Shown here: positions 34,719 through 62,553 of the stretch, piece by piece
How positions within the stretch are numbered: position 1 is the first letter of the stretch
Layout: the number at the start of each line of letters is the position of its first letter
From: a virus
Lineage: Duplodnaviria > Caudoviricetes
Reading direction: 5' to 3' (one strand)
Length of the DNA stretch: 64,000 bases
Virus record (IMG/VR): IMGVR_UViG_3300029288_000153
Coordinates: 1-64,000 of that record
Translations under genes and position numbers: made by a program
Notes under the pieces: generated by a model
Seen by the model: only the letters and a program-made list of their open reading frames with translations
Database searches by the model: none
What the model was told of the DNA's origin: nothing

Positions 34719-36764
34719 ATGAGCAAACGATCTGTGGTGTCGGAAATACTATCAGCTATGCCGACTGGCATACGCCCCCCCGATAAGCGCACCCCTTTGG
34801 ATATCAATAGTCGCTCGGGGTTGCGTAATGTGTTGGATCAGAGATATTTGGCTAAGGGGGAGATGCCCGACAGTTCCCTGAATAAGACTATGGTGGTACC
34901 TAGGGACTCAAACACATTAGAGAAGTCGTTCAGAAAATTTTTGGACGGCCCCGAGGATTCGATCGAGCGGCTGGCCTTCGAGAGAGATCCACAGCGTATC
35001 TCAGAGTTTGCTGGCCTCTATCGACCTAAAATAGCGCTTATACCCGACACGCTACTCAAGCGAGCTGCTATCCAGGATGATCTGGTAGCGGCAATTGTCC
35101 ACACTCGCTGTAATCATTTATCTCAGCTGGGCAGGAAGCAACCGAATCGACACTCCAAAGGGTTCGTGATGGAGATCGATACGGATATTGACGCGTCATT
35201 GGACGACGCGCAGAAAAGGAAGCTGCAGGATCGGATTAACAGAGCCGAGAGATTATTGCTGACTTGTGGACACACTAAAGGGTGGGGGAAGCAAGATAGG
35301 TGTTCGTTTGCGGAATATCTCTACTTATCTACTCGCAATGCGGTGGTGGTGGGGCGTACCGCTACCGAGGTGATCAGTGTCCCGGATAAAAACGATCCCA
35401 CCAAACGTGTATTTCACTCTTTTCGACCTACTGATGCGGGGACTATCTACTATGCGGCGCCGTATCGGGACGCCCAGGAGGCGGTCAGGCAGCAGGCCAG
35501 GATACTACTAGCACAACTAAAAAACGAGAAGTTGGTAGAGGATAAATTCATCAACGACGAGTATGCGTGGGTGCAGGTGATTGAGGGTCGCCCCACGCAG
35601 GCGTTTTCGTCGGATGAGATGTTGGTACAGAATTTTTACCCTGTGACTGACCTCGAACTACAGGGTTATCCCCTTACGCCGCTGGACACGGCGTTGACCG
35701 CTGTTACTACACACCTGAATATTTCGTCGCATAATAAGCTGTACTTTCAGTACGGCCGGGCTGCGAGGGGGATGTTGGTTATTAAGAGTCAAGACGTTGA
35801 CGCCGAAGTGGTCCAGGCAGTTAAACAGCAATTCAACGCCTCGATTAATTCGGTCTCAAATAGTTTTCGTATGCCATGTTTTGGGATCTCGCCTGACGAT
35901 GAAATCACCTGGCAGCCAATCGATCAGGGATCGAGAGATGCAGAGTTTCAGTTTTTATCTGACTCAAACGCCCGTACTATTCTAGCCGCGTTTCAAATGA
36001 GTCCTGAGGAGTTGCCTGGGTACCAGCATCTTTCACGGGGCACCAGCAACCAGGCGCTGTCTGAGTCAAATAACGAGTATAAATTGACAGCTGCTCGTGA
36101 CGTTGGGATTCGTCCCCTGGTGGCCAAGATCGAAGACCACCTTAATGACTCGTTATTGCCTCTGATCGATCCGGAATTGGCCAAGATTGTTAAGATTCGT
36201 CTAGTAGGTTTGGACGTAGACGACCAAGAAAAAGAGAGTGTGCGCCTCCAGCAGGATATGGGCGTGCACATGACCTACGACGAGGTACTAGGAAAGGTCG
36301 AAAAAGACCCGTTGGGGAAGGATCTATGCGGCGGATTCCCTTTGAATCAGCAGGTGATGGCGTATGTCGAGAAGTATATGACATTCGGCGAGATCTTAGC
36401 AAAGCTTCGAGGGGTCAAGGGAGCTGATAAGGATCCGTCGTTGCAATTTTATCAAAATCCCGCTTGGTTGCAGTTTTATGGGTTACAAGCGCAACAGCAA
36501 GCGCAACAGGCGCCCCCCGGACAGCCCGGACAAAACAAGCAGTCGTCTGACGGGCAGGGCGGTGGAGAGTTGGGGAGCGCGGTAGATCAGTTGGGGGCGA
36601 TGCTGGGGAAATCCGAAGGGTTCCGAGGTACACTCAAGGCCCATCAGGCTAAGCTCAATCGATACATCATGGACACTTTTCAGGCCGAGACGGTTAAGCT
36701 TGTAAGTGAAATTGCGGACATCGCCGATATTCATAAGCCGCAGCCGCCTGTTGAGAAGAAATAA
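34719..36764 (+). CDS. Portal protein
   Basis: GYPLTPLD, QFNASINS...RMP, DAEFQFL, ILAAFQMSPEELP, RDVGIRPL. Confidence 0.88.
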   Translation: MSKRSVVSEILSAMPTGIRPPDKRTPLDINSRSGLRNVLDQRYLAKGEMPDSSLNKTMVVPRDSNTLEKSFRKFLDGPEDSIERLAFERDPQRISEFAGLYRPKIALIPDTLLKRAAIQDDLVAAIVHTRCNHLSQLGRKQPNRHSKGFVMEIDTDIDASLDDAQKRKLQDRINRAERLLLTCGHTKGWGKQDRCSFAEYLYLSTRNAVVVGRTATEVISVPDKNDPTKRVFHSFRPTDAGTIYYAAPYRDAQEAVRQQARILLAQLKNEKLVEDKFINDEYAWVQVIEGRPTQAFSSDEMLVQNFYPVTDLELQGYPLTPLDTALTAVTTHLNISSHNKLYFQYGRAARGMLVIKSQDVDAEVVQAVKQQFNASINSVSNSFRMPCFGISPDDEITWQPIDQGSRDAEFQFLSDSNARTILAAFQMSPEELPGYQHLSRGTSNQALSESNNEYKLTAARDVGIRPLVAKIEDHLNDSLLPLIDPELAKIVKIRLVGLDVDDQEKESVRLQQDMGVHMTYDEVLGKVEKDPLGKDLCGGFPLNQQVMAYVEKYMTFGEILAKLRGVKGADKDPSLQFYQNPAWLQFYGLQAQQQAQQAPPGQPGQNKQSSDGQGGGELGSAVDQLGAMLGKSEGFRGTLKAHQAKLNRYIMDTFQAETVKLVSEIADIADIHKPQPPVEKK

Positions 36765-37570
36765 TGACCCCTCGGCTTAGTCGTGGAGCTATCAAGGTTA
36801 TTGAAGCTAAGATCGACGGAATGTATGATCGGCTACTCAATAGGCTACTAGGTACCTGTTCTCCGCATAAATCTCTGTTTATGTCGGTGGATCCATTCTT
36901 TTCTGTGCCAGGTCTCTATGCTCAGGCGGTGTCGGAGGAGGGTGGTGCGGTGGATCGTGATTTGGTGCAGGGGCTATCGGATGTGGTGTCTCATATTACC
37001 GACAAGCAGCGCTCCGAAAGTAAGGCGATCACTATTCGTAAGATCCAAGCCATCTTGGAGGATGTTAAGGCCGGTAGGATAGAGCCCCAAAACTTCAAGA
37101 ATCATTTAGAAAGTGAGCTGATCGATACTTGGGGGAGAGTGTCGAGCAACGTCGAGCGCATTGTGGATACTGAAACCCAGCACGCCATGACCATTGGGCT
37201 ACGTGAAGGGATAAGTCAAATAAATGCCGTACGGGGCATCGTTGATCCAGTATTGGTTTTCGTGGTAAAGAACGATCAGGCTTTGTGTGATGAATGCCGG
37301 CGTGTCCATTTATTGGACGACGGACATACGCCTAGGGCGTGGTACCAATCTGAGGTGTCGGCGGATTATCATCATCGAGGTGACAACGTTCCGTCGTTCC
37401 ATCTCATGCACCCACATTGTCGATGTGTTATGGGTACTATTTTACCAGGATTTGGTCTAGATGGTAATGGCCGCATCACCTTTATTGCAGATGGATTCTC
37501 GGAGCTAGATTTCCAGCGCACAACGGGCGGTGGTGGCGGGGTGGAGGCGCGTCGCCGGTGGAGGGGGTAA
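36764..37570 (+). CDS. Head morphogenesis protein (MuF/SPP1 gp7-like)
   Basis: ERIVDTE...D..LCDECRR...HPHCRC after portal. Confidence 0.8.
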   Translation: MTPRLSRGAIKVIEAKIDGMYDRLLNRLLGTCSPHKSLFMSVDPFFSVPGLYAQAVSEEGGAVDRDLVQGLSDVVSHITDKQRSESKAITIRKIQAILEDVKAGRIEPQNFKNHLESELIDTWGRVSSNVERIVDTETQHAMTIGLREGISQINAVRGIVDPVLVFVVKNDQALCDECRRVHLLDDGHTPRAWYQSEVSADYHHRGDNVPSFHLMHPHCRCVMGTILPGFGLDGNGRITFIADGFSELDFQRTTGGGGGVEARRRWRG

Positions 37571-37622: not shown

Positions 37623-38306
37623 ATGATGAACCTGAAGAGGGTGTCGCAGATTAGCCGGGCGTTGACGGCCGATGGTGCTAGTGGATTTGTGCGCGTGGCG
37701 ACGCCAAATCCTTTTGTGGTGGGCATGACCGTAAATCTGACATCGGCTGGCCCTGCTGTATTAGGTTTACAGATTTCAGATATCAAAGGGGTGGGAGGCA
37801 GTACCGACGTGGCCGTGTACCTTATTGATCCAGCCACTCAGGCGGCCTACGACGCTTCGGCGTACACCACCCTACTGACATCTCTGATCATTGCTCCTGC
37901 TCAGACCCTTTGGTACGAGGTCGGGGTAGATGGCGTGGTTCCCACACCGTTTACTGATCTACAGATGCGGTCTATTATGGACGCCATCTTGCCGGCGTCA
38001 TTGTCGGGTGGGGTAACCGACGCTCAGCTACAAGTTACCCTAAACAAGTACGTGTATCCGGTATTAGGGGCAAATCTCTATCTGGCTATCTCTACTGTCG
38101 ACGCTTCTGTGTCGGTGGGGGCAGGATCGTACTTGATGATGAGCACCGTTGATGTGTCTTTTGCGGATGGCGTCGAGCCGACCTTGGGGCAGTCTAAATT
38201 GTTGGCGGCTAAAATTTACGTGCCCTGTAGATGGGCGTCGACCACCACGGTACACTTCAAGACATCGGCGGGCACCGGAACGGTATTTCTCTGGCCCTGT
38301 ACCTAA
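37623..38306 (+). CDS. Putative virion protein, paralog of 41069..41833
   Basis: Shared N-domain ...DASAYTT...QTLWY. Confidence 0.65.
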   Translation: MMNLKRVSQISRALTADGASGFVRVATPNPFVVGMTVNLTSAGPAVLGLQISDIKGVGGSTDVAVYLIDPATQAAYDASAYTTLLTSLIIAPAQTLWYEVGVDGVVPTPFTDLQMRSIMDAILPASLSGGVTDAQLQVTLNKYVYPVLGANLYLAISTVDASVSVGAGSYLMMSTVDVSFADGVEPTLGQSKLLAAKIYVPCRWASTTTVHFKTSAGTGTVFLWPCT

Positions 38307-38315
38307 GGGGATTAG

Positions 38316-39095
38316 ATGCGTCTGATTTCCGCACCAGCCACGGTCCTACATGCCCCGTTCACTACCTTTGGGGCGTCGGTGCCGGAAGACGGTAACTGCG
38401 TTTCACATGTGACGTTTCCTGGTGGCTCTATCTACGATAGTAAAGGGAACATGTGGACGCAGATAGGGGCCGTGCCTCAGGTAGCAACCTCTCAGCTGTA
38501 TCCGTTGGGTTTTGGGGCTGCTAGTAGGTCCGGGGCGGGGCCATTTACTTCGAGTGTTAACTATTTTCAGCTCGACCCTTTGGGGACCGGTACCGATGTG
38601 CTAGATTTTGCTGGTGACTTTTTGGGGGTGGCGGTGTTTCGGCCTACCGCTGTGCCAACCGGTGTTCTGGTTTCGAACGGGCTATATCAAGTAGATGGTT
38701 ATTACCTGCAGTTTTCGGGGTTGACCTTAAGCTTGGTGCAGAGTCAATCCGGCGAGGCTGATTTGCAGTCGGTGGGGGGCTGTGATGCCGACGCTATCAA
38801 CGTGGTGTGTTTTGGGCGGGTAGGGGCGAATAATATAATTAAACTCAATCTTAATGGTCTTATCTCGGGTGTTGGGAAAACTATTACCCCAGCAACCACC
38901 CGGCCTGCTCGTATTGGTGTATATGGAGATGGTGGATCGGCTACTTCTAGCACCGTCTACGAGCTGTATTTTACCACTACGACACCTACCGATGCTCTCT
39001 GTATTAATATTGTCAATCATGTATTTCAGCAGCAGGGGACTATGGGCGAGGCGTTGATTGTTGCTAGGGCCATATGTGGGAGCTACGAGATATGA
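38316..39095 (+). CDS. LamG/concanavalin-like virion protein
   Basis: YDSKGN, DFLGVAVF, YYLQ, ARIG, YELYF beta-sandwich pattern. Confidence 0.6.
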   Translation: MRLISAPATVLHAPFTTFGASVPEDGNCVSHVTFPGGSIYDSKGNMWTQIGAVPQVATSQLYPLGFGAASRSGAGPFTSSVNYFQLDPLGTGTDVLDFAGDFLGVAVFRPTAVPTGVLVSNGLYQVDGYYLQFSGLTLSLVQSQSGEADLQSVGGCDADAINVVCFGRVGANNIIKLNLNGLISGVGKTITPATTRPARIGVYGDGGSATSSTVYELYFTTTTPTDALCINIVNHVFQQQGTMGEALIVARAICGSYEI

Positions 39096-40135
39096 CGGTT
39101 GTTTATTCACCGATTGACGGTATTCGCGTTAACGAAAAAGGGGTGCTAGTAGAATCCAGTCGCACTAACTCAATTTTGCAGTCGCAGTCGCTCGCCACCT
39201 CTCCTTGGGGCGTTGCGCATGTTACTGTCGCTGATCCAACGGTGACCAATAATACCGTTGATGTACTAGCCCCTGACGGGACCCAGACGGCCACCAAGGT
39301 GATTCTTCCGGCCGTGGCGGCTGGGGAGATGTCGTCGATACAACAGACGTTTACGGCTACGGCTACGGCATGGTCGGCTTCGATTTGGCTTCGGACCGCC
39401 ACCGGGACAGCAACGGTGTTTTTGCATCTCATTACAGGAGCAACGATCAAAACTGTGCAGTGCAATGTAACTAGTGATTGGACTAGGATCTCGCTCAACG
39501 CCCAGACCCTTACAGCTGCAACGTGGATCTACGAGCTAGGGGTTGATTGTGTAAACGGAGACGCGGAGCAACCGGCACAGACCGTTTACGCCTGGGGGGC
39601 CCAGTGTGAGCTAGGAGCATTTGCGTCGAGCTATATTTATACGGTGGCCGGGACACAAAATCGCCCAGCTGATATGGTATCTGTTGTGAACCCATTGTGT
39701 AACTGCGATGATACTTGGATGATTGGCGGAACATTTACCCCGTACGTAGGATCTGCATGGAGTGCGGTCAGTTCTTCGACTATGTTGTGGGGCGTAAATG
39801 TTGGGACCGGCGCAAATACTGCGTACTTCTACCTCAACGGAACCAATTTGGCGTTTACGGTTCGCGACGTCAGCAATAATGCCAAAACTATTGCCGCTAC
39901 TTTTAGCTGGACGACCGGCCAGATCACCAAACAGATATTTGCTAGTAACACCCGAGGGTTACTAGAGATATGGGTTGAAGGGGTGTCGGTGGGCAGTGTG
40001 TCCGGGACCGGAACGGGGATAATCAGTACCTGGCCATCTGCTATTGCGATCGGTCGCACGGGGACCGGTAGTCATTTTAATGGCTATGTGCGTGATTTCA
40101 AGATCGCACGACATGCGGATATAGCTAGGTTATAG
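39092..40135 (+). CDS. Head spike/fibre protein with carbohydrate-binding + LamG domains
   Basis: GVLVESSRTNSILQS, SIWLR, WTRIS, WGAQCELG..ASSYI.T, FNGYVR. Confidence 0.7.
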   Translation: MTVVYSPIDGIRVNEKGVLVESSRTNSILQSQSLATSPWGVAHVTVADPTVTNNTVDVLAPDGTQTATKVILPAVAAGEMSSIQQTFTATATAWSASIWLRTATGTATVFLHLITGATIKTVQCNVTSDWTRISLNAQTLTAATWIYELGVDCVNGDAEQPAQTVYAWGAQCELGAFASSYIYTVAGTQNRPADMVSVVNPLCNCDDTWMIGGTFTPYVGSAWSAVSSSTMLWGVNVGTGANTAYFYLNGTNLAFTVRDVSNNAKTIAATFSWTTGQITKQIFASNTRGLLEIWVEGVSVGSVSGTGTGIISTWPSAIAIGRTGTGSHFNGYVRDFKIARHADIARL

Positions 40136-40142
40136 CTGTGAG

Positions 40143-40153
40143 CGTGATATTGT
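40143..40153 (+). promoter_or_regulatory. Extended -10 promoter CGTGATATTGT
   Basis: Matches CGTGWTATNNT family; upstream of ClpP-like gene. Confidence 0.45.
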
Positions 40154-40198
40154 ATATGTATGCGTTGAGTACCTAACCTTCCAACCGGCGGATCTGCG

Positions 40199-40804
40199 AT
40201 GAAAAAAATAACGGCAATTATCTTTAGTTTGTTTTTTGCGGTAGTCGCCCACGCCGTTGAGCCGGTGGTCGGCGTGATCCACGTAGAGTCGGAGTTTACT
40301 AGCGTGTTAGTATCGATGGTGGACTCGGAGCTAGCACAGGCCAAGGCCGCATCGGCAACGTCGTTGATAGTGTTGATCGACTCCCCCGGTGGAGGAATGG
40401 GGAGTATGCTCAAGGTCATCAAGGCGATATCTGATACGAAACTACCTACGGTATGTATTGTCGGCAACCAAGCAGCGTCGGCAGCGTTTGTCTTGTTGCA
40501 GTCGGAGGCCTGTACGGTTCGGATTGTTCGACCTTATTCTGTGTTGCTGGCGCATCTTGCTCGCTCGGCTGATGATACGCCGGCTAACGTCACAGAACTA
40601 GAGGAGAGGATCACGGATCTGAAACTATACGATCGGGTTATTGCGCTGCGGGTTTGTGGCCGAATAGGGATGACCCCAGATGAATATCTCAGCAAACTAC
40701 AAAACGGCGATTGGGTCTCGTTGGGTGAGGATGCGGTGGCTAATCATCTAGCAGATAAGGTTATCCCCGGTGGCGTTGTGGTACAGATTGGGCCTCGATC
40801 GTAA
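40199..40804 (+). CDS. Exported ClpP/SppA-like serine protease
   Basis: Signal peptide MKKITAIIFSLFFAVVAHA; IDSPGG, AASAA (Ser), LAH, EDAV...LADKV. Confidence 0.8.
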   Translation: MKKITAIIFSLFFAVVAHAVEPVVGVIHVESEFTSVLVSMVDSELAQAKAASATSLIVLIDSPGGGMGSMLKVIKAISDTKLPTVCIVGNQAASAAFVLLQSEACTVRIVRPYSVLLAHLARSADDTPANVTELEERITDLKLYDRVIALRVCGRIGMTPDEYLSKLQNGDWVSLGEDAVANHLADKVIPGGVVVQIGPRS

Positions 40805-40838
40805 TAGTAGATGTAGGGATCGACGAAGAGGAGGCGAT

Positions 40839-44020: not shown

Positions 44021-46891
44021 ATGAGCTTGGTTATATATGGGGTTATCGGTAGTGAGGCGATTGATTCTTCGTCCGAGATGTTGTCGGTCAAGGGGTGTGA
44101 TATCTCCACCCTTGCTCAAAGCGGTGTGCTAAATTACGAGCACGTTGGCAATGAGGACGGGTCGTTTAATTCTATAATCGGTAAATGTATCAAAGCAAAG
44201 AAGATTTATTCGTCCTCTGATTGTGAGGACAGCAACGAAGAAAAATGTTGGGCGGCCACCGGAGTGCCTTTTATTTATGGGGTGTTTCGTCTTTTTGATG
44301 GTGCTGGCCATCCCAATGCGGTAGCGGCTGCTGCGATAATGAGAGATCAGGCGGCTCATGGCGAGGATCAAATCCTACGTCTGAGTATTGAAGGCAACAC
44401 CTTAGAGTCTAAGGACGGGGTCTTGGTTTCCACGATTGCCAAAAACGTGGCTTTGACTAAGGCTCCGTGTAACAAGACCGCCATTACGGGGATTGTCGGC
44501 GACCCTCAAAAGGAAATGTCGGAGGACGGTGATCTATCTGATATTCTAGCTACCAAAAAAGGTGGAGATCTCAATATCCGGTTGTCGTCGGTCCCTTTTA
44601 TTTATGCGCCGTACGAAGAACCTCTTGATGCGATCGATGCCTTTGTTGTGAACGCCAAAAGGGTAATTGAGTTGGCGAAAGCCATGACGGCCGGTGGGGA
44701 CAATGTAGCTCCCTCTTCGTTGACGGGCGGTAGCGCTCTGATGCGCGAGGACCTTGGCGGCGACCAACGGAAGCGTCTGATTGCTGTTTGCAAGGCCGCT
44801 CTACGAGATCACAACCCTATGGTACATGGGCCATTTAGGCGGTTTTTGAAAAGTTTATTGCCAGAAGTCAGTGATGAGTTTTTGGATAGATTTCAGGAGG
44901 TTGCTGACGATCTCGATGTCAAGGCTAAGCTAAATTATTTACGCAAGGACGAGGGCGATCTGTCCGTTGAGAAGATGTTGAACGCGGCCAAAGATGATGC
45001 CTATGTCCGTCGAGATCTAGCTCGACACCCCAAGTTGCCGCCGGAGCTAATGCCTCAATTGGCGCAGGACAAAGACGAAGGTGTCCGTCGATACCTAGCC
45101 CTACACCCCCAGTTGCCGCCGGCAGCGATGTCTCAATTGGCGCAGGATTCAAGCGAATATGTCCGTCGAAATCTAGCCCAACACCCCAAGTTGCCGCCGG
45201 AGCTAATGCCTCAATTGGCACATGATGAAGACAAATATGTTCGCCAAAATCTAGCTGGACATCCCCAGTTGTCGCCGGAAGCGATGTCTCGGTTGGCACA
45301 TGATGAAGACAAATATGTTCGCCAAAATCTAGGTGGACATCCCCAGTTGCCTCCAGAGCTGATGTCTCGGTTGGCGCAGGACAAAGACGAAGGTGTCCGT
45401 CGAAATCTAGGTCGACATCCCCAGTTGCCTCCGGCAGCGATGTCTCAATTGGCGCAGGACAAAGACGAATATGTTCGCCAAAATCTAGCCAAACACCCCC
45501 AGTTGCCTCCAGAGCTGATGCCTCGGTTGGCGCAGGACAAAGACGAAGGTGTCCGTCGAAACCTAGCTCGACACCCCAAGTTGCCGCCGGCAGCGATGTC
45601 TCAATTGGCGCAGGATTCAGACGAAGGTGTCCGTCGATACCTAGCCCTACACCCCCAGTTGCCTCCAGAGCTGATGTCTCGGTTGGCACAGGATTCAAGC
45701 GAATATGTCCGTCGAAATCTAGCCCAACACCCCCAGTTGCCGCCGGAGCTGATGCCTCAATTGACGCAGGACAAAGACGAAGGTGTCCGTCAATACCTAG
45801 CTCGACACCCCCAGTTGTCGCCGGAAGCGATGTCTCGGTTGGCACATGATGAAGACAAATATGTTCGACAAAATTTAGCTGAGCACCCAAACCTGTCGCC
45901 GGAAGCGATGTCTCGGTTGGCGCAAGACGAAAACGAAGATGTTCGCCAGTGGGTGTTTGAGTGGCATAATCCCGACCAATTAACCAAAGAGCACGTGAAC
46001 GTCAAATACAATACCACCAAGCTCCGTAAGATTCGTGATCACATTTTGGCTCAGGGGAAGACTGAGATGTCTCCCAAAGACCTCCCTCCGGGGGACTGGA
46101 GTGTGGGGCGTGTGTCTTCGGGAAACATCTCAGCACAGAAGATCCAAGAACACATCGACCGGATGTCTGCGACTAGGTTTACTATCAGTCATGGCACCTG
46201 GGCAGGTGCCCAACGGCACTCTGGGGAGTCGTCCAAGGTTTTCCAAGTCGGGTTGTCGACTGACACTATCCAGAAACTGAAGGCCGCCGGTGTCTATGGG
46301 TCGTTCCGGAAGATCTATGACGAAAACGTAACCGACGCCCATCCCCATGGGCCGTCGGGAATCGGGTGGGTTAGGTGGACGGGCGATCAAAAGGGTGTTC
46401 ACATCGACGAGGTACAGTCTGATATCGGCCGGCAATTCGGCAAATACAAAGAAGCCTCTTCGGATAAGCAACCCCTTGTTCCCGACGAACACCGCCAGAA
46501 GATCAAGGCGATTGTTTTCAGTGACCGACACCCCAACGAGGTGCTACACGAAGCCTTTCAACAACACTTACGTGACCGAGGGTGGATAGACACGCCGGTA
46601 CACACATGGACACCCGAAACCAAAGCGCCCCTGTCCTCTTTGGATGCCAATAAACCGATCCCCGGTCACATGCAAGTAACATACCGGGATATCCCAAAGA
46701 AGATGGGCTGGGAGGAAGGGCGGTATGGTTCGTTGCCGACGCAGAAAAACAAAAAGCTAAAGGATAGTACGACCGTCGGTGACGCGGTGAGAAAAGCGGA
46801 GGAGCAGGTCGTAGGGGTGAACTGGCCTGATGTTTTTGTAAACGTGTCTGCATCAGAAATAATACGAAACGCGAGTATCCGTTATGGATAA
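44021..46891 (+). CDS. Prohead (HK97/U35-type) protease fused to LRV/HEAT repeats and a C-terminal EVQSD domain
   Basis: GVIGSEAIDSSSE, LNYEH (His), LSIEG (Ser); RBS GAGGT before ATG 44021; HIDEVQSD near C-terminus. Confidence 0.8.
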   Translation: MSLVIYGVIGSEAIDSSSEMLSVKGCDISTLAQSGVLNYEHVGNEDGSFNSIIGKCIKAKKIYSSSDCEDSNEEKCWAATGVPFIYGVFRLFDGAGHPNAVAAAAIMRDQAAHGEDQILRLSIEGNTLESKDGVLVSTIAKNVALTKAPCNKTAITGIVGDPQKEMSEDGDLSDILATKKGGDLNIRLSSVPFIYAPYEEPLDAIDAFVVNAKRVIELAKAMTAGGDNVAPSSLTGGSALMREDLGGDQRKRLIAVCKAALRDHNPMVHGPFRRFLKSLLPEVSDEFLDRFQEVADDLDVKAKLNYLRKDEGDLSVEKMLNAAKDDAYVRRDLARHPKLPPELMPQLAQDKDEGVRRYLALHPQLPPAAMSQLAQDSSEYVRRNLAQHPKLPPELMPQLAHDEDKYVRQNLAGHPQLSPEAMSRLAHDEDKYVRQNLGGHPQLPPELMSRLAQDKDEGVRRNLGRHPQLPPAAMSQLAQDKDEYVRQNLAKHPQLPPELMPRLAQDKDEGVRRNLARHPKLPPAAMSQLAQDSDEGVRRYLALHPQLPPELMSRLAQDSSEYVRRNLAQHPQLPPELMPQLTQDKDEGVRQYLARHPQLSPEAMSRLAHDEDKYVRQNLAEHPNLSPEAMSRLAQDENEDVRQWVFEWHNPDQLTKEHVNVKYNTTKLRKIRDHILAQGKTEMSPKDLPPGDWSVGRVSSGNISAQKIQEHIDRMSATRFTISHGTWAGAQRHSGESSKVFQVGLSTDTIQKLKAAGVYGSFRKIYDENVTDAHPHGPSGIGWVRWTGDQKGVHIDEVQSDIGRQFGKYKEASSDKQPLVPDEHRQKIKAIVFSDRHPNEVLHEAFQQHLRDRGWIDTPVHTWTPETKAPLSSLDANKPIPGHMQVTYRDIPKKMGWEEGRYGSLPTQKNKKLKDSTTVGDAVRKAEEQVVGVNWPDVFVNVSASEIIRNASIRYG
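44995..45960 (+). repeat. 78-bp (26-aa) tandem repeat, 12 full units, LRV/HEAT-like
   Basis: D.DE.VR..LA.HP.L.P..M..LAQ units. Confidence 0.9.
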
Positions 46892-48917
46892 TGACAAGTT
46901 GATGAGTGCTTCGTTAGATGCCGCTCGCCGTGGTGATTGGCAGAGGGCCATCGATCTGGCCAGACAGGTGCCTAAAAATTGGGACGTCTGGCAACAATTC
47001 CCGTCGATCGCGTTAGGTGACGAAGGGCAGGGGGCGGGGCTCCCTGATAGCGCCGTACACGCCATCATGGATGTAATCCCACAACAAAATCTGCTTGGAT
47101 TTCTCTACGAATATTCCACTAACCTACCGCCGACGGCCGGGGTGGAGGTACTTGGTAGAGTGGCCGATGCCGCAAAGGAAGACTATCTAACTACAGATAA
47201 CGTGACCCAGCACCCAAACTTCAAACTCGACCCTCACTCTAAGGCCCTAAAAAACGCCAGTGACTTCTGGGCAACATACGAGACGGAGGTAGGTGCTCAT
47301 CATTTTGCGGTGGTGAAGAGTCTGTTCACCGGCCGCCCCGAGGAAGTGGTGGATCATAGAGGTCAATCCGGTTCATCTGAGCAGCATATTCATCTGCTGC
47401 CTGATCTATCCGTATATGCCCAAGAGGTACAGCGCGCTGTATTACACGACGCCAATGATCGAGGGCATCAGATCAGGTACTTCGGCGCCGAGCCTCATAT
47501 TAAGGTGTATCGCGGTGTTGGTGGCCGATACGCGGCGGAGATAAGTAAGGCAGCCAACTATGATCCGGTAAGCGGTAAGGTAGACGGCAAGAATTTACGT
47601 ATTCCAACATCCCACTTGACCTCGTGGTCGACCGACCCTACGCTGGCTCATCGTTTTGCTACCACGCGAGCTACCGACCAAGAGACGGCGAACCGACCTG
47701 AACATCAGGTCGGTGTAGTGGTAGAAAAATGGATGCCGGTTAAGAATATTTTACACTCAGGATATCATACCGTGGTGCCCAGTCAGAATCATCCACATGC
47801 AGACGAGGAAGAGTTGGTGTTCGGCCATATGAACGAACATGTCAAGGTACCAACCACCTCCATACATTTTTTATCGCAACCTACATCGGAGCAGGGCTAT
47901 CAGTACCCGTGGGGGTCGAAACGTGGGGTGGCTCGTCCGAGCCCCTCGACGGCATCAAGGTCCCCGGGGGCACTTCACAAAGACGAACAAGATACCAAGG
48001 AGCCTTATTGGTGGCATGGGACACCTAGTGGCGACATGAGGGGTGGATCGACGGGTCTTCATATCGGAACCAAGAAGGCCGCCACCGAGGCCTTAACGGC
48101 TCGTATCGGACACCCCGTGGAGGGTAGTTGGGATGGCACCAGGGAGTACGGTAAGACCCTGTTGGCCGGGAAAAAGACGTTACGGGCTCGTGGTATCTAT
48201 CCCACCGGATATAGTGCCGAGTTGGCGCCTGAAGAGGATTTTTACGCCGATTCCATGCCACGGTTTTCGACCGACGTGCCAATGCTGCCTACGCATAAGC
48301 CTATAATATTTCCTGTCGCGATAGTAGGTAAGATGTCCAACACTCCACAGACACCTCATGCAGACTTTGCGGCCAATAGCAGGATGAAATCAGCTTTGCA
48401 GCGAGGTGTGGCTCGTAGGGGGTACTACTACGCCAACATTGGCGAGGACGCAGGAAATATCAGCGCGGTGCTACCTGGTCCCGAACACGTGCGGCGGCTT
48501 GATGGGTTAGGCAAGTCAGAGGTGGAAATCGACCCCCACGTGGTGGTGGCCATTGTGGCCCAAGATGGACTGGGGCGTATCCTATGGGGGCGGAAGCGGA
48601 GCAACAAAAAATGGTGTGTGCCGGCCGGTCACGTAAATTTAAACGAACATCCGGTGGATGGAGCCAAGAGGGAGCTGGGTGAGGAGACCGGTTTGATCCC
48701 TCGGCAGATGTGGTTGGTGGGGAGCGGGAATACCGCCGATGGGTCCATTTACGTCTACTACTGCGTGGTGGACGGTACTGTCACGCTCGCGCACGATCCA
48801 GACAACGAATTCGCACAGCTGATTTGGGTGGATTGTCTACGTGGTTTGCCCGACTTTATTCGGATGAATCTAGCGCACGCGCCCGATCTGGTCTGTGAGT
48901 TGATGGGGTGGCAGTAG
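46884..48917 (+). CDS. Multidomain protein: R-S-E ADP-ribosyltransferase + H-type ART-like + Nudix hydrolase
   Basis: KVYRG / SWSTD / DEEEL; WHGT / GLHIGT; Nudix box GHVNLNEHPVDGAKRELGEETGL. Confidence 0.75.
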   Translation: MDNDKLMSASLDAARRGDWQRAIDLARQVPKNWDVWQQFPSIALGDEGQGAGLPDSAVHAIMDVIPQQNLLGFLYEYSTNLPPTAGVEVLGRVADAAKEDYLTTDNVTQHPNFKLDPHSKALKNASDFWATYETEVGAHHFAVVKSLFTGRPEEVVDHRGQSGSSEQHIHLLPDLSVYAQEVQRAVLHDANDRGHQIRYFGAEPHIKVYRGVGGRYAAEISKAANYDPVSGKVDGKNLRIPTSHLTSWSTDPTLAHRFATTRATDQETANRPEHQVGVVVEKWMPVKNILHSGYHTVVPSQNHPHADEEELVFGHMNEHVKVPTTSIHFLSQPTSEQGYQYPWGSKRGVARPSPSTASRSPGALHKDEQDTKEPYWWHGTPSGDMRGGSTGLHIGTKKAATEALTARIGHPVEGSWDGTREYGKTLLAGKKTLRARGIYPTGYSAELAPEEDFYADSMPRFSTDVPMLPTHKPIIFPVAIVGKMSNTPQTPHADFAANSRMKSALQRGVARRGYYYANIGEDAGNISAVLPGPEHVRRLDGLGKSEVEIDPHVVVAIVAQDGLGRILWGRKRSNKKWCVPAGHVNLNEHPVDGAKRELGEETGLIPRQMWLVGSGNTADGSIYVYYCVVDGTVTLAHDPDNEFAQLIWVDCLRGLPDFIRMNLAHAPDLVCELMGWQ

Positions 48918-49250: not shown

Positions 49251-49289
49251 TCTGAGATGCGTTGTCCGATAGGCGAAAGTGCCGCGATG

Positions 49290-49296
49290 TAATCTA
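49290..49296 (+). promoter_or_regulatory. Candidate late promoter TAATCTA
   Basis: 6 nt upstream of ATG 49303, no SD between. Confidence 0.55.
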
Positions 49297-49302
49297 ATCA
49301 AC

Positions 49303-52300
49303 ATGGCCCTCAAGCCGACCACCCTTTCAGTCACCGAGTTGGACCCTCAGCAAATTGCTTCCAGGGTGGTAGATCAAGTCGATCAATCTACTAAGTACCG
49401 TACCACAGATCCTACGCAAGAGCGGGAGTTTACGGCCCGAAAGAAACCCGCCCCAATCTATAGCCCTCATGATATAGACGAAGCCCCCGACGAAGCCCCA
49501 AACCAAGGCATTGAGTACCCGGCGATATGGAAACAGAAGGCTTCGCTGACCCCCACGCAGTTAGTTATTGCCCATAAGTTGATGGGGCATATGTCGTCTT
49601 CCACCCCTCTTTCTGCGCCAGATCTATATCGAGCCTACAAGCATTCACCACAAACCCCCGCCTCCGTTTTTTTGAAGTACTCCGTGCATCGGATCAACCA
49701 TCTAGACGACTACGGCGATCCTCGAAAGGCACATGATTTAGATAAACAGTTCTTGGGGTTGGTGCAGAGAGGCAAGGCTGAGGATAAAAATGGTCATGTG
49801 TCTGTTTCGGATCTACACGGCTGGACACGCCGCCACGCCGCCAGGATTATTCCCGAGATACTAGCGATCCGAGATAAACATCAAAAACACATCTTAAGAG
49901 GTATTGGGTTAAATGTCCGGTCGATCAACGGCCAACCTCATGTGGCTCTGACCAGAGGGTTGGAGTCAGATTTTATGAGCGACGAGCATCCACTATCTAG
50001 TCACGCGGATAAGCCAGAAACTGGATTCGGTTTATGTATGCACCATAGTTGGGTACCGGTACGTGATCTATGGTATTCGTTTGATTTAGGAACAAAATAT
50101 AGTACGGGGAATATGGGCCCTGAGGACGAATATCTGATATCCAATACGTTACCTAGGTATCAGGCAACTCCCAATGACGTCACGATGGGGCGCATTAAGC
50201 CTTATACATTAGATAGCGGTGTTGGCGTTCCTGAGAGCGAGTATGCGTACGACTCTGATACTGATCAGCAATTAGCCGCCAAGGTAAATGCGTTGCCGGC
50301 GGATACCTCCTCGGCTCTCGATGGGTTGTTAAATCAGATATATCAACTCCCAAATGCAGGTGCGGCCGTTTACGAGGCGGTCAAAAAAAAGCTCCCGAAC
50401 TTCCACCATATTAAAAGTGACTACTATTGCTATAAATGGTATCCGCGCGAAGAGATCATGCGCGACTACGGCAATGTCGTTGATATAGCCCGTGCCGAAC
50501 CTTTACAGAACCCCAATCTGACTTCACAGGATTTAGACAAATTAAGTCGGGCTGTATTAAATCCGAGTTTGCTTCGCCCCGAGTCGCACCCGGATCCCGA
50601 AAGGGCTAAGAGAGATGTCATTTTAGAGTGGATGCGGCATCCATCCATGACCTCACATGTCTTAGAACGTACATGGAAGAACACTCCGTCAAGCAATCCT
50701 CTTCGAAGTCGGTTATTGGAATCACCTCTAGCTACCCCCGTGATGCTACAGGAGGTAACTGACCAGATCGATGACGATAAAGACAACGATCACGCGGTTA
50801 CGTCTTTATTGGGGGTCGTCCGCAACCCCCATCACACTGAAAAGCATGGACAGGTGGCATATGATTGGGCGGTGCGACATGGATTATTCGACGATACGGC
50901 GATAGTAGGCGGTTTGCATGCTATAGTCACCGCCGCCAAGTTGCCGATTCAGACTGTTCGCCAGATGGCGGACAAACAGGATACGTTTGCAGGTAGGCAA
51001 GTACTCAAGAGATACGTTTCCTTCAATCCCCGCGCCGCCCCTAATATAGCACAGCTCGCTGTTGAAGGAAAAGTTTCTCGTGAACATCTGAATTCAAGAT
51101 TGACATCCCTCCGTAAGCTCGAATCAGAGCTACAGATGCCATATCTACGGATGTTACTAGATGGCGACGTGGCGAATATTAAGAAGCTAAAAGCGAATGT
51201 GTCAGGGCGCGATGCTTATGATGTGGCGATTAATTCTAGTTTGACTCCGGAGTCGATCAGATTGTTGAGTCACTATCCGATTAAAAGTGTTCGCAACGCG
51301 TTATTTCACAACAAATCCGTATTGCCCGAGCAGATCAAAGAAGCGTTTCCAAAGGAGCTACCGTTTCCTCAGCCCCCTACCCTACTGGCCCCCCTACCCT
51401 CAACTGGCGATCCTATTGCTGATGAGATAGCCGCTGCGTATTATAGCCGCAAGGCCTACGAGGATCAAAGGAACAAGAAACATTTAATCAAACCTCTGCC
51501 GCCTGATCTTGCGAAGTCTGATGTGGATATGTGGCGAGCGCAGGTCCGCGAGTGGTTGGCCGACCAGGAAGTGAAAGGGTACTACCTGGTAGTTGATCAA
51601 GAGCATGCCACTAATATAGTACGAGATCAAGCTATTGAACCGCAGTTTACCGATAGGTTGTTGGAGGGGGAGGCGATTTTTGCGCACAGAGCCTCTCCTG
51701 TATTTATCGGCAATTGGCACCTGACCGCTCATCCGGATGACGTGTTGGTTTATTTCGAGACTTCTAGTCAACCTCAACAACAAGGTGACGAGTACTACTG
51801 GACTGCTCGGATTCCAATCGAGAACGCTCGTATAGTCGATGTGGCCACGCCGCTGGCTAAGTTTCAAACGCCGCTTATGTTCCCGGGGTTGGGAATATCA
51901 GACGATCGTCGTGAAACCAAGATTATACAAACACCTACGGAACGCAAAGGTGTGGCGAGAGCTGCTGCCGCACAGGCGGTACGAGAAAATCAGGTCGGGG
52001 ATGTGTCGTTTGATCCTCAAGTTAACATTAAAATAGCCAATAGGGCCTATGGTCGTTATCGGAAATTAGTGACTGAGGGATCTTCTCCTGAAGGGGTGAC
52101 CTTCGAGGGGGTGGCGGGGGTAGGTCATCCGGGTTTTGGCATTAAAAAACAGGATAGAGAGCGAATCCCAGGAGCCGGATCTGGACAGTCTGCTATATCC
52201 ATTGCCGTTGTGCCTGCCCAAGACAACGCGGGGGACAAGGGGGTTCCGGCCACGGTAGTCCACGAAAATCTACATCGTATTTTTTCGCGGGTGCAACATC

Positions 52301-53871
52301 GTCATGGCACGTCGGCCCGAAACACACTAGCAACGAATCTGCTATACGCCCTACCACAAGACACCCGAGAGGCGATATCGGAGCATATGTTATATCAAAG
52401 AACCGACCTGCCTCCTGGGCCTGGGTGGGATGAGGAAGCGCTGACCATGTTGGGATCGTACTTGAATGACCCAAAGGCTCGCAGATCGTTTCACGACAAA
52501 CAACAGCACTCCCCTGAGCAAGAGCAGCAATTTTCGGAGAAGATGAAGCGAGCATATAAGACCCTACACGCTATCTCGGGAACTGTACACGAAGGGTGGT
52601 TACATCGCTTGCGTCCGTGGCTACATAAAGGGCAAGGTGAAGTGCCGGCCCATCAGCTAATTGACGTGGATTTAGGCAAATCGGACTCTATCGGGTTCAT
52701 TTTATCGGACGAAAAGGTGTTTGGGGCCGGCGAGGAGTCGGCTGCTAATATGTTGTTGGGGCATAATAAGCACCACGATGTTGCCGTGGCGGCGGCTATG
52801 TTTTTGGTGGGTCGCAGCCGCTTGCCCGACGACGACGCATTTCGTACTGCCATGCGGGTCTATGATGGAGACTACGAGAGTGCTGCATTGTTCTCGGTGG
52901 GGCTAACTAACTCCACAGAGAATCTGCGAGCCCTAAGGGCCGCTATTGAGTTAGGTGAGTTCGATAAGACACTATCTAAGTCCGAGTATCCAACGACGCG
53001 CATTGGGTCCGTGGGGGCCGGTACAGTAGACGCACAAGATACTGCCAATCAAGTAGCCAGAGGGGTGACGGCCGGTTTGGTGCGAGCACTTCATCTCCGT
53101 GGCAAGCATTCGGCCGGCGCCACGGCGGTGCGTGATCCTCAGACAGGTGGTGTCTGGCTACTTAAGCCAGCTGCCAATAAGCCTAGTCCAGCTAAGGGGA
53201 TTAGAGAAGACCCGTCCAGTCAGTCTGAGCGCGAGGCGGCTTTTTGGCATTGTGCTCAGGTAATGGGTTTGGAGAGGTATATGCCTCGCTGTGACCTATT
53301 AGTAGTCGACGGACATAAAGTAGCGGCCATCAAGCTGTTAGGCGATAGGTGGCATGGTTTATCGGAGCGCGACAAGGCGGTTGCAAATAGAGCTGTAGAG
53401 ATTCTGACTCCATATTTGCAACGTGGAGATGTGCATCGGTTCGCGATTATGGATTGGGTGCTGGGCCAGGTAGATAGGCACGGACAAAACATCCTGACAA
53501 CCAACCATGCTATTGCGTTGATCGACGAGGGGTCTACGTTTGCTGCCGCGGGCTTCAATCCGGGCTGCGATACTAAGTCGTTCGTCCCTTATTATCTTAG
53601 AGTATTTGCTCCGAGTGGTTTTTCTACAAAAAACCCCGACGATCGGGCGCGTGGTTTACCTGTGCTGGAACACGAGGTTGATGCACAGGTGCGTCAATGG
53701 GTCAAGAATATCGATCCCGCTACGCTATTAGAAACAATGTCTCGATACGGGATCGGCGCCGTTGCGCAGAAAGCGGTATTATCGCGGCTCGACGCCCTAC
53801 AACACGCCACCGTGTCGTCGATTAGCTCGTATGTCAATCAATTGTGGTGTGGTGTTCACTCCCACGATTGA
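49303..53871 (+). CDS. About 1520-aa polyvalent protein: ART + helical repeats + zincin (HExxH) + HipA/PI3K-like kinase
   Basis: LTRG / LSSH / EDEYL; HENLH...EEAL; WLLKP, EREAA, DWVLGQVDRHGQN, LIDEG. Confidence 0.8.
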   Translation: MALKPTTLSVTELDPQQIASRVVDQVDQSTKYRTTDPTQEREFTARKKPAPIYSPHDIDEAPDEAPNQGIEYPAIWKQKASLTPTQLVIAHKLMGHMSSSTPLSAPDLYRAYKHSPQTPASVFLKYSVHRINHLDDYGDPRKAHDLDKQFLGLVQRGKAEDKNGHVSVSDLHGWTRRHAARIIPEILAIRDKHQKHILRGIGLNVRSINGQPHVALTRGLESDFMSDEHPLSSHADKPETGFGLCMHHSWVPVRDLWYSFDLGTKYSTGNMGPEDEYLISNTLPRYQATPNDVTMGRIKPYTLDSGVGVPESEYAYDSDTDQQLAAKVNALPADTSSALDGLLNQIYQLPNAGAAVYEAVKKKLPNFHHIKSDYYCYKWYPREEIMRDYGNVVDIARAEPLQNPNLTSQDLDKLSRAVLNPSLLRPESHPDPERAKRDVILEWMRHPSMTSHVLERTWKNTPSSNPLRSRLLESPLATPVMLQEVTDQIDDDKDNDHAVTSLLGVVRNPHHTEKHGQVAYDWAVRHGLFDDTAIVGGLHAIVTAAKLPIQTVRQMADKQDTFAGRQVLKRYVSFNPRAAPNIAQLAVEGKVSREHLNSRLTSLRKLESELQMPYLRMLLDGDVANIKKLKANVSGRDAYDVAINSSLTPESIRLLSHYPIKSVRNALFHNKSVLPEQIKEAFPKELPFPQPPTLLAPLPSTGDPIADEIAAAYYSRKAYEDQRNKKHLIKPLPPDLAKSDVDMWRAQVREWLADQEVKGYYLVVDQEHATNIVRDQAIEPQFTDRLLEGEAIFAHRASPVFIGNWHLTAHPDDVLVYFETSSQPQQQGDEYYWTARIPIENARIVDVATPLAKFQTPLMFPGLGISDDRRETKIIQTPTERKGVARAAAAQAVRENQVGDVSFDPQVNIKIANRAYGRYRKLVTEGSSPEGVTFEGVAGVGHPGFGIKKQDRERIPGAGSGQSAISIAVVPAQDNAGDKGVPATVVHENLHRIFSRVQHRHGTSARNTLATNLLYALPQDTREAISEHMLYQRTDLPPGPGWDEEALTMLGSYLNDPKARRSFHDKQQHSPEQEQQFSEKMKRAYKTLHAISGTVHEGWLHRLRPWLHKGQGEVPAHQLIDVDLGKSDSIGFILSDEKVFGAGEESAANMLLGHNKHHDVAVAAAMFLVGRSRLPDDDAFRTAMRVYDGDYESAALFSVGLTNSTENLRALRAAIELGEFDKTLSKSEYPTTRIGSVGAGTVDAQDTANQVARGVTAGLVRALHLRGKHSAGATAVRDPQTGGVWLLKPAANKPSPAKGIREDPSSQSEREAAFWHCAQVMGLERYMPRCDLLVVDGHKVAAIKLLGDRWHGLSERDKAVANRAVEILTPYLQRGDVHRFAIMDWVLGQVDRHGQNILTTNHAIALIDEGSTFAAAGFNPGCDTKSFVPYYLRVFAPSGFSTKNPDDRARGLPVLEHEVDAQVRQWVKNIDPATLLETMSRYGIGAVAQKAVLSRLDALQHATVSSISSYVNQLWCGVHSHD

Positions 53872-58564: not shown

Positions 58565-58888
58565 ATGGGAGATCGCATGTTACCTAAGATCACAGACAAG
58601 CAGCTGCAATATAAGAAACGCATCGGAACGTGTCATGGTAATCCGGTAATGGAAATGTGTACCAGCGGTGGTCTCTATATAGTGGCCGTAAGAAAAAACA
58701 ACGCCGTCGAGGTGATGGGAACCGGTCCTCATAGGGCCGTGGCAAGATTTATCGCCAAAAAAAAAGAACCCACCATGCTGATCACTGAGTTGTCGAAGTC
58801 AGATTGGATCGATCGGCCCTCGATTGATAGCGTCCTCGCCAAATATGAGGCTTTGACCGATGCCATCAACGGATCCCTAGTGACGTAA
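58565..58888 (+). CDS. Small putative head protein
   Basis: Contains LSKSD junction motif. Confidence 0.6.
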   Translation: MGDRMLPKITDKQLQYKKRIGTCHGNPVMEMCTSGGLYIVAVRKNNAVEVMGTGPHRAVARFIAKKKEPTMLITELSKSDWIDRPSIDSVLAKYEALTDAINGSLVT

Positions 58889-60661: not shown

Positions 60662-61075
60662 ATGACCAAGCAGCCATTAATGTGGTTGGGTCACCCCGTT
60701 CGCGACTCCGAGCATATCAACTCACTGGAGCTTAATGCGGCCATCAATCAATATCACCACGGGATGAGTAGGGCCGATGCGGAAGCTCGGGTGAAGGACG
60801 AGGATCGTCGTGATAGGCATCTTAGGGCGGCAGCCCACCACTTCGAAGGTCTTCGCGCAGCCAATGCGGTTGGGTCCGAAGATGACGCCAAGCGGCATCA
60901 TGAAATGTACTCGATGCACCTACGAGTTTTAGGTCTAGAACCAAACGGACCGGTGCCCATTGAGATACAGCGCTATCGAGACGCCGAGACGCATCGCCGC
61001 GCCTATGCGTATAAAGGGCACTCCGACGATCAATTGCTGGCGGATGGCGCCAAAAAGAATGTTGGAGACAGGTAA
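60662..61075 (+). CDS. His-rich hypothetical protein
   Basis: 137-aa ORF abutting neighbours. Confidence 0.65.
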   Translation: MTKQPLMWLGHPVRDSEHINSLELNAAINQYHHGMSRADAEARVKDEDRRDRHLRAAAHHFEGLRAANAVGSEDDAKRHHEMYSMHLRVLGLEPNGPVPIEIQRYRDAETHRRAYAYKGHSDDQLLADGAKKNVGDR

Positions 61076-62553
61076 TGCCACAATTAACTATCAGTGCTGT
61101 TTCGAATATCTCAACGGAGATCGAGCGTCAATTACAGCACGATCACCCCGAAGAGGCAGCGCGGACCAGCCAAGGTATTTCGGCTGCCAATATGGTGGTG
61201 GAGAGTTGGGCGCTGCAGAGTCACGGTAAAATTATCTCGCAAGATGGAGCTAGTTTTACGATCGAAATCCCCGCCGCCTATCTCGAAGAGTTGGCGGAAA
61301 TCATAGAGCGCATTGAGGGTGTTAGTGGTAGTGAATATGCGGTAGGGGTAGGAGCGGATGCCGGCGAGGCTATTGTGGCTCGACGGGTCGCCGAGCAGCG
61401 CGGGGGGTCTCGAAATATCGTGCTATATACGCCAGATATTCACAGCGAAATCGAGGACGACATAAAGGATTCCGAGTCCGACATATTCGATGGTGAAATG
61501 AATAAGGCGGAGGAGCAGAGACGCCCCGGCGAGGCCACCCAGGTGGTTAGGGGCGAGGTATCGCCGCTACACACGCAACCCTCCCCTCCGCCTAGTCCGT
61601 CGATCAGCGCCGACCCCCACGCCCCTCCGTCAGGTGATCGGCAGTCAGCTCCGGAACCGTCTGAACAGGATCTGGTTGGGGCCATTGGGCAAGTATTAAG
61701 TCAATTCAAACAACAGGTTCCGTTTTTTGAGCAGCAAGTCAAGTCAGCGAATCGACCAGCCTACGATGCTGTGATGGGGTTGGTCCAAGGGTTGATTGCT
61801 CTAGCTCAACAGTTAGTAGGTAATCCAGCAACGAACGAGGATGTAGGTGAGGCGGTACAAAAAGCTGAGGACGATATGCGTAGGTCTACTGGACGGCGTA
61901 ATCATCGATGTAGTCGGTGTGGCAACTTGGTGTCTGTGTTGAAGGACGGTCGAGTGGAAGCACATCTACACAGGCAGCTACGATCTAGCACCTTGTCGCC
62001 GTGTGACGGCGAAGCGGCGCTGCCCGTTAAAAAATCTGAGACCTCTAAGGTGGAGATCGATCCATCGAAGCCGCTGCCTGATTCCGATGCATTACGTAAG
62101 CTATTCGATTGGGCCCGGGATAGTATTATGCAACGCGGTGAGGAGGATTGGGGGGCCGATTTGTTCCGGGAGTTCCCTACAGGATTCGAGCACGAGCGTA
62201 GTGAACATCCTCATTTAGACGACCACGACACGGCGCTTACTACCATCCAACACCTCAAAGAGGATCCTAATTACTACACCAAGATTCAACACATGGAGGA
62301 GTCGGGGGTGTTGGGAAAAGAAGAGGTTGGGCGACATAGAGTGGTGCTACCTGTCGGTAGTCGCGGCGTGGGGGCCAAGGGGAATAGTATTAAGGTTCTT
62401 GAGCCAACTACAGGAAAAACCGCTTGGCACCAGATGGGTGCTGGCTGCAAACTGAGCGCCGACGGCCACCCTATTAGCACCAAAGTGACGGAGTGTGGTA
62501 GCGCCGACACGCCTGAACACCGAGCTGCTGCGGCTGGGTTAGTTGGTAGGTAG
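61075..62553 (+). CDS. Multidomain protein: degenerate mCpol-like N-domain, Zn ribbon, DUF5661-like domain
   Basis: GKII..G...AVGVG....EA..A...RG..NIVLY; CSRCG; EHERSEH...QHLKEDPNYYTK. Confidence 0.6.
   Translation: MPQLTISAVSNISTEIERQLQHDHPEEAARTSQGISAANMVVESWALQSHGKIISQDGASFTIEIPAAYLEELAEIIERIEGVSGSEYAVGVGADAGEAIVARRVAEQRGGSRNIVLYTPDIHSEIEDDIKDSESDIFDGEMNKAEEQRRPGEATQVVRGEVSPLHTQPSPPPSPSISADPHAPPSGDRQSAPEPSEQDLVGAIGQVLSQFKQQVPFFEQQVKSANRPAYDAVMGLVQGLIALAQQLVGNPATNEDVGEAVQKAEDDMRRSTGRRNHRCSRCGNLVSVLKDGRVEAHLHRQLRSSTLSPCDGEAALPVKKSETSKVEIDPSKPLPDSDALRKLFDWARDSIMQRGEEDWGADLFREFPTGFEHERSEHPHLDDHDTALTTIQHLKEDPNYYTKIQHMEESGVLGKEEVGRHRVVLPVGSRGVGAKGNSIKVLEPTTGKTAWHQMGAGCKLSADGHPISTKVTECGSADTPEHRAAAAGLVGR

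Follow-up and report, generated by a model that had tools for sequence, protein, structure and literature searches.

Head proteins of an uncultivated relative of the Myxococcus phage Mx1 carry a short recurring peptide, [LVM]xK[SAD][ED], at the seams between their modules, and we read this peptide as a cut site for the phage's own prohead protease. The DNA analysed here, referred to as the window, is a stretch of 64,000 nucleotides that forms the first part of a 74,001-bp viral contig (IMG/VR record IMGVR_UViG_3300029288_000153; CheckV completeness estimate 45%). The window is the late region of this phage, and the genes of the contig are syntenic with those of Mx1 (OR576727.2, 169.6 kb), with protein identities of 25–47%. 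The explanation that we favour, to which we give a probability of about 0.72, is that long multi-enzyme head proteins are packaged and are cut into separate domains by a serine protease encoded at 44021-46891.

The strict pattern was counted in a gene set chosen greedily from the contig (22,950 amino acids, aa) and compared with expected counts from 2000 rounds of within-protein shuffling. The whole contig has 16 matches. Twelve of these lie in plus-strand genes from position 34719 onwards (10,154 aa), where 2.26 ± 1.47 were expected and none of the 2000 shuffles reached 12; the other genes hold four against 2.9 expected, which is the level of chance. Because the pattern had been chosen on these same proteins, it was therefore tested on other genomes. 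The head module of Mx1 (8.6–39.3 kb) has 14 matches against 2.8 expected (0 of 2000 shuffles as high), and the 43,000 residues outside it have seven against 9.5 expected. The Mx1 head module also holds 17 copies of the tripeptide KSE, with an expectation of 2.4, and three sets of metagenomic homologues show an excess over shuffles of approximately fourfold (98 against 26, 20 against 5 and 24 against 5.8). The codons of the sites vary at synonymous positions, so it is the peptide that is under selection; a recombination box at the level of the DNA was considered and rejected for this reason. From these sequence counts the enrichment is confirmed as real, and it extends to a wide clade.

A preliminary description of this DNA, made from the sequence alone, had described the motif in predicted head proteins, and in both the contig and Mx1 the enrichment is indeed restricted to the head module. 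The coordinates that it listed all translate to the pentapeptides given for them (LRKDE 44939, VRKAE 46787, LHKDE 47973, LGKSE 48507, LAKSD 51508, LGKSD 52672, LSKSE 52972, MNKAE 61498, VQKAE 61855, VKKSE 62026 and LSKSD 58790, with LGKSE 36603 and LAKGE 34848 in the portal). Positions 4 and 5 of the motif proved looser than first written, since Gly, Asn, Thr or Lys are allowed there and the capsid site lacks a Glu at +2.

Outside the Mx1 head module KSE is rarer than expected (2 against 8.3, with only 1 of 400 shuffles as low), and the non-head proteins of Mx1 may avoid the protease site.

The candidate protease gene and the elements within it are as follows.

44021..44515, plus strand: catalytic domain of the prohead serine protease (residues 1-165; His41 and Ser122 invariant; fold and profile matches)
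44672..44790, plus strand: capsid-N-terminus mimic in the protease protein, beginning with the predicted cut site LAK↓AM (Lys220)
44939..44953, plus strand: LRKDE, predicted self-cleavage site between the protease-plus-helical part and the cargo
44954..46891, plus strand: cargo of the protease fusion, LRV/HEAT-like repeats (Pfam LRV, 2.6e-55)
46787-46801, plus strand: VRKAE, 30 residues before the end of the protease protein

The open reading frame (ORF) encodes 963 aa from the database start at 44021. An AlphaFold2 model has a predicted local distance difference test score (pLDDT) of 96–98 over residues 1–165, falling below 50 from residue 312. The model superimposes on T4 gp21 (5jbl) with a Z score of 10.9 and a root-mean-square deviation of 2.3 Å over 121 residues, and matches the varicella-zoster virus protease with Z 9.8 and the human cytomegalovirus protease with Z 7.5; the next unrelated chain scores 5.2. 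Foldseek searches with the domain returned herpesvirus, T4 and HK97-type proteases, together with many phage prohead proteases in BFVD down to an E value of 1e-12. Residues His41, His97, Ser122 and Glu124 are invariant in 46 protease sequences, and they align with the DH and S-V-E-G of SPO1 gp3.2. A profile of the domain matches SPO1 gp3.2 and A511 gp84 with E values of ~1e-15. Pfam gave no match for the protease domain, and searching PDB sequences with a profile of the protease alignment yielded spurious matches only. Judged by its modelled fold, its invariant His and Ser and its homology to the SPO1 and A511 proteins, the N-terminus of the gene product is an assemblin-fold prohead serine protease of the same kind as those of SPO1-like phages, as the preliminary description had supposed.

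The N-terminal protease part is shared by 74 homologues, in which the C-terminal cargo varies between GGDEF, PI3/4-kinase-like, NUDIX and LRV-repeat modules. The shared part is closed by an [LV]-x-K-x-E column (Lys in 56 of 64 homologues), after which the sequences diverge completely. The VRKAE site further downstream is kept as [VI]RK[AS] in homologues P0008 and P0009, the second of which then runs directly into a Nudix domain. An LTKE variant at 45980, which had also been listed as a site, is not conserved and is probably not one.

Directly after the catalytic domain, the protease carries a copy of 35–55 residues of its own phage's capsid N-terminus, the lysine of the cut site included. This mimic was aligned with the capsid N-termini of Mx1 and of the relatives L007 and L008, and Lys220 is present in 63 of 64 homologues. 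Pairwise BLAST of the protease against the capsid N-terminus of the same phage gave E values from 1e-14 to 5e-4 in five phages (Mx1 13002-16721, L007, L008, SPO1 as L009 and A511 as L011). Judged by eye and with cross-phage pairs unscored, each copy is closer to the capsid protein of its own phage than to those of the other phages, which would suggest that the two co-vary.

The remaining sites of the head module lie in the portal and in four further proteins.

34719..36764, plus strand: portal (assigned to Pfam Phage_portal and to portal families of PHROG; 47% identity with its Mx1 counterpart)
34848-34862, plus strand: LAKGE, predicted N-terminal site of the portal
36603-36617, plus strand: LGKSE, predicted C-terminal site of the portal
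46884..48917, plus strand: 677-aa three-module protein, with module A (1-351), module B (376-540) and Nudix (551-650; Pfam NUDIX 4.4e-15)
47973-47987, plus strand: LHKDE, residue 364 of the 677-aa protein, seam of modules A and B
48507-48521, plus strand: LGKSE, residue 542 of the 677-aa protein, seam of module B and Nudix
49279..53871, plus strand: multi-module protein of 1530 aa that ends in a kinase-like module (sites LAKSD 51508, LAKF 51853, LGKSD 52672 and LSKSE 52972)
58565..58888, plus strand: 107-aa head-module protein with site LSKSD (58790-58804)
61075..62553, plus strand: 492-aa protein with a weak mCpol-like N-terminus and a DUF5661-like part (sites MNKAE 61498, VQKAE 61855 and VKKSE 62026)

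Both portal sites are kept in the contig, Mx1 and L008, within stretches that are otherwise poorly conserved. In the 677-aa protein, the blocks of BLAST homology break at residues 351/376 and 540/551, and LHKDE and LGKSE sit in these gaps. The AlphaFold2 model has pLDDT values below 50 at residues 333–373, and its last module B strand ends at 538; the Nudix part is modelled with a pLDDT of only ~30 because the alignment had no coverage there. Pfam found no match for module A or module B, and whole-model Foldseek and VIA-align searches were dominated by the N-terminal helical repeats. Of the domain labels that had been given to this protein, Nudix holds, and that of an ART is weakly supported: it stays unproven for module B, resting on the neighbouring ART-PolyVal in homologues and on weak fold matches (RES toxin, Z 5.8 over residues 375–540; Tne2 at Foldseek rank 44).

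In relatives, module B adjoins ART-PolyVal, GNAT, GGDEF, MuF or Nudix domains with motifs in between. The order is module B, ITKAE, ART-PolyVal in P0086, and LGKSE, GNAT, LQKSE, module B, LQKAD, ART-PolyVal in P0091. Two sites directly precede the Nudix domain of P0090, and in P0079 module A is followed by VKKSE and a kinase. Other phages also have module B joined to MuF head proteins.

The family of the 1530-aa protein comprises 12 homologues (30–47% identity) and has conserved columns L-A-K-S-E at 744, L-x-K-[FM] at 859 and LSK[SANT]E at 1232. Pfam gave no match for residues 1–1240. Homologues of the C-terminal kinase module are the Mx1 'kinase' and the C-terminal ends of many protease fusions; its PI3_PI4_kinase match in Pfam is weak and lies near the cut-off. 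Among the smaller proteins, the 107-aa protein is 43% identical to Mx1 30724-31035, where its site is kept as ELSKSE. The 492-aa protein matches mCpol at 3e-4 and DUF5661 at 5e-5 in Pfam, both below cut-off, so the mCpol label proposed for it is likewise weakly supported. Taken together, and as had been predicted from domain boundaries, the sites fall in gaps between homology or Pfam modules, which by sequence comparison supports a putative cleavage tag at the junctions.

Two further observations concern the 1530-aa family. At the LGKSD site (52672-52686, residue 1132), relatives P0099–P0106 have inserted cassettes of 100–700 residues, GNAT among them; L-R-K precedes each cassette, and xK[SA]E closes it immediately ahead of the kinase module. 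The kinase-like module is itself the C-terminal cargo of many protease fusions (homologues P0002–P0074), and it seems to be one of the core packaged enzymes of the clade.

The position of the cut can be approached through scaffold and capsid proteins of relatives. In Mx1, L007 and L008 the capsid gene is directly preceded by genes for scaffold-like proteins of 286–329 aa, which have Pro/Ala-rich centres and 3–5 sites each. In SPO1, LEKSE, ILKSE and LSKSE lie close to the N-termini of portal, protease and scaffold, and x-K-S strings abound in the scaffold. The capsid proteins of Mx1, L007 and L008 begin with 11–14 residues followed by L-x-K-A-[LM]-E-G/A-G, and that of SPO1 has L-N-K-A-L-E-A-G. 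In the GenBank record of A511, the mature capsid protein starts at residue 24, after ...A-L-K and before S-F-T-T-G. This mature start after a lysine, together with the L-x-K-A of the Mx1-type capsid proteins, leads us to read the cut as L-x-K↓S/A, and the cut after Lys that had been proposed earlier thus fits an annotated mature N-terminus. Sites aligned on the lysine keep a hydrophobic P3 and a small P1' residue, and sites aligned on the glutamate do not. A cut after the glutamate, in the style of T4 and phiKZ, was rejected as less parsimonious, as the L-x-K-A-[LM]-E capsid sites do not align on Glu. From the one annotated relative we infer a site of the form L-x-K↓[S/A/G/D], with Glu or Asp apparently preferred at P2' in cargo sites.

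These results suggest the following course of events. Within the assembling prohead, the protease would recognise a hydrophobic P3 and a lysine at P1, and would cut between the lysine and a small residue (Ser, Ala, Gly or Asp) that is mostly followed by Glu or Asp. It would cut itself after Lys220 and after Lys309, the second cut freeing the repeat cargo. Its other substrates would be the portal tails, the capsid N-terminus and scaffold-like protein in relatives, and the multi-enzyme chains, namely the 677-aa protein of module A, module B and Nudix, the 1530-aa protein with its kinase, and the 492-aa protein. Since a site lies at each module seam, one long precursor could be co-assembled into the head core and later be cut into separate domains; once freed, the domains would be retained in the capsid and exit together with the DNA. 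The parts of this scheme differ in strength. That the motif marks cut sites of the prohead protease is probable, whereas we incline only somewhat towards delivery of the pieces as an arsenal. The cutting itself, its position after Lys, the packaging and the injection are what we infer from the arrangement of sites and modules. As a tentative generalisation, the Mx1-like clade, most of which is uncultivated, might build an injected arsenal from swappable cassettes flanked by L-x-K↓S-E, with a Lys-specific prohead protease that heads a cargo polyprotein and carries a co-varying copy of the capsid N-terminus, perhaps as a prohead tether.

Several observations weigh against this scheme. The annotated A511 site has its Leu at P2 and not at P3. 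The flanks of site 744 in the 1530-aa family are well conserved, and this site may therefore lie in a folded context; in the 492-aa protein only the middle site is kept in the Mx1 orthologue, MNKAE and VKKSE not being conserved. Early proteins also hold a few motif matches, two of them in the sigma-like protein. The free-standing 677-aa and 1530-aa proteins show no N-terminal targeting peptide; among homologues, P0088–P0090 have a site at residue 23. Over 149 sites, the hydrophobic fraction within 15 residues on either side was 0.283, compared with 0.280 for background and 0.272 for tail-less L-x-K, so that this crude and simple proxy gave no linker signature. A major capsid protein gene was found nowhere in the 74-kb contig, leaving the phage's own capsid site unreadable. 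A gene for a ClpP-like protease with matches to PHROG 'head maturation protease' families lies in the same module. In the literature searched, neither this phage nor Mx1 is covered by proteomic or biochemical data, and neither the motif nor Mx1 virion processing is described.

Among the alternatives, the one that survives best, while still unlikely, accepts the cleavage and dispenses with the injected arsenal: core or scaffold material would be degraded and expelled, or the enzymes would act in the producing cell. In its favour, most T4 core proteins are degraded. Against it, the modules belong to enzyme classes (Nudix, kinase-like, GGDEF, GNAT and ART-PolyVal) and do not resemble scaffold, module B is found joined to MuF head proteins elsewhere among phages, and T4 Alt and the SPN3US ejection proteins provide precedents for delivery.

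It is less probable again that the motif is never cut and serves as a docking or assembly peptide, such as a capsid-targeting or scaffold-binding tag, or as a helix-capping linker that travels with shuffled modules. The conserved flanks of some sites and the result of the hydrophobicity proxy would agree with this. On the other hand, the same L-x-K-small pattern stands at the capsid N-terminus, where it is annotated as cut in A511; scaffold-like proteins, a typical class of protease substrate, contain many copies; and the motif is found at the ends of the protease itself. A docking tag would also not be expected at every module seam.

A slightly weaker case can be made for cutting at the same sites by another enzyme: a ClpP-like protease, a zincin-type peptidase in the 1530-aa protein or a host protease. 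The first of these would be encoded by the gene mentioned above.

40199..40804, plus strand: ClpP-like protease, rival cutter (Pfam CLP_protease 9e-9; PHROG 'head maturation protease' families)

The second would rest on an HExxH motif, HENLH at 52261 (residue 995 of the 1530-aa protein), and on the assignment of polyvalent-protein processing to an MPTase domain (Iyer et al. 2017, PMC5512222). The motif is, however, equally present in Mx1 and L008, which have no ClpP-like gene between portal and protease, and even at E = 1 Pfam shows no peptidase family in residues 745–1240 of the 1530-aa protein. The head modules of A511 and SPO1 have only an assemblin-type protease and yet the same K↓S sites, and the conserved site right after the assemblin-fold domain and that at the capsid N-terminus implicate this protease. 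Lastly, a chance or compositional artefact, for which it could be argued that the pattern had been picked out by eye in these very proteins and that LxKAE-like strings are common in helices, is effectively rejected by the replication against shuffles in Mx1 and ~100 metagenomic homologues, by the KSE excess in the Mx1 head module and by columns that are conserved at 30–47% identity.

The genomic setting is that of a late region. Replication genes on the minus strand are followed on the plus strand by genes for a helicase, a sigma-like factor, terminase, portal and head and neck proteins, and the multi-domain genes are bracketed by terminase (31718) and portal (34719) on one side and the sheath gene (contig position 69845) on the other. 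The order of portal and then protease is common to the contig, Mx1, L008 and SPO1, and the portal, as well as the capsid protein in relatives, is distantly SPO1-like. In Mx1, L007 and L008 the capsid gene lies 3–9 kb downstream of the protease, and the gene order of the contig differs; the capsid gene of this phage must lie in the missing part of its genome. A 452-aa ORF (contig 68403-69761, beyond the window) was considered as a capsid protein and rejected, as it is Lys-rich and of low complexity. Three x-K-A-E strings occur in this protein, whose gene directly precedes that for the tail sheath, and it may be another internal head or neck protein.

Two differences from relatives lie apart from the motif. 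The block 37623-43953, between the portal-adjacent gene and the protease, is missing at the same place in Mx1 and L008; it includes the ClpP-like gene at 40199-40804 and the following.

39074-40135: Laminin_G_3 tail-like protein
42791-43342: tail-fibre-like protein

The gene for DnaE (Pol III alpha; minus strand, 6800-10826) is split over two adjacent ORFs, of which 9054-10826 matches residues 5–520 and 6800-9064 matches residues 516–1274 of a protein encoded by a single 1289-aa gene in Mx1.

Injected phage proteins carried in the capsid are the first weapons against host defences and are hard to spot from sequence. If the scheme is correct, a cut motif and its protease would allow probable capsid cargo and its mature fragments to be listed from sequence for the Mx1-like clade and probably for SPO1-like phages, and the motif would also explain the cassette swapping of Nudix, kinase-like, GGDEF, GNAT and ART modules. 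Mx1, growing on Myxococcus xanthus, is a cultivable phage in which this could be tested directly.

The scheme has parallels in several known systems. The T4 protease gp21, whose substrates include internal proteins, the ADP-ribosyltransferase Alt, gp23 and core proteins, trims the capsid N-terminus and also processes packaged and injected proteins such as Alt; the substrate set proposed here is similar. The two proteases share the assemblin fold, with the Z score of 10.9 given above, and a short motif with a hydrophobic P3, gp21 cutting at I/LxE (10.64898/2026.03.04.709575). Unlike in T4, the predicted P1 residue is Lys and not Glu, the conserved residue two after the hydrophobic one being Lys, and the protease forms the N-terminus of a long fusion with cargo. 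Single T4 proteins lose a short N-terminal targeting peptide, whereas here multi-enzyme chains would be cut at their inner seams. The proteases phiKZ gp175 and SPN3US gp245 cut after Glu in small-x-Glu motifs. In these giant phages many head proteins, including ejected ones, are reported to be cut by the prohead protease at a short consensus (PMC5694885, PMC10052503); the lineage described here is instead SPO1-like by portal, capsid protein and protease.

Phages are known to package effectors, and the polyvalent proteins of phages and conjugative elements have been predicted to be packaged, processed and delivered (PMC5512222, Iyer et al. 2017). The proteins described here resemble these in joining unrelated enzyme domains (ART-PolyVal, GNAT, GGDEF, Nudix and MuF) in one polypeptide among late genes. 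At least two unrelated domains per polypeptide are found in the 677-aa protein (modules A and B with Nudix) and in homologues with ART-PolyVal, GNAT, GGDEF, Nudix and kinase-like domains, and the genes stand among the late and virion genes of a phage with a portal-terminase system. They differ from polyvalent proteins in having an assemblin-fold protease at the N-terminus and a defined cut motif at every seam. The picture of polyvalent proteins would be revised accordingly, in that the processing enzyme would be a prohead protease and not a zincin peptidase, and that an assemblin-like domain can be N-terminal.

The Herelleviridae (SPO1 gp3.2, A511 gp84 and the A511 Cps precursor) share with the present phage a homologous protease, a K↓S/A site at the capsid N-terminus and the same capsid-N-terminus mimic. 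In contrast, their proteases are ~260 aa long without enzyme cargo, and the part of their head modules that was covered holds no multi-enzyme substrates. Compared with all of these systems, which work in a similar way, the present case is set apart by the predicted specificity for Lys, the fusion of an N-terminal protease to its cargo, and the regular marking of every seam.

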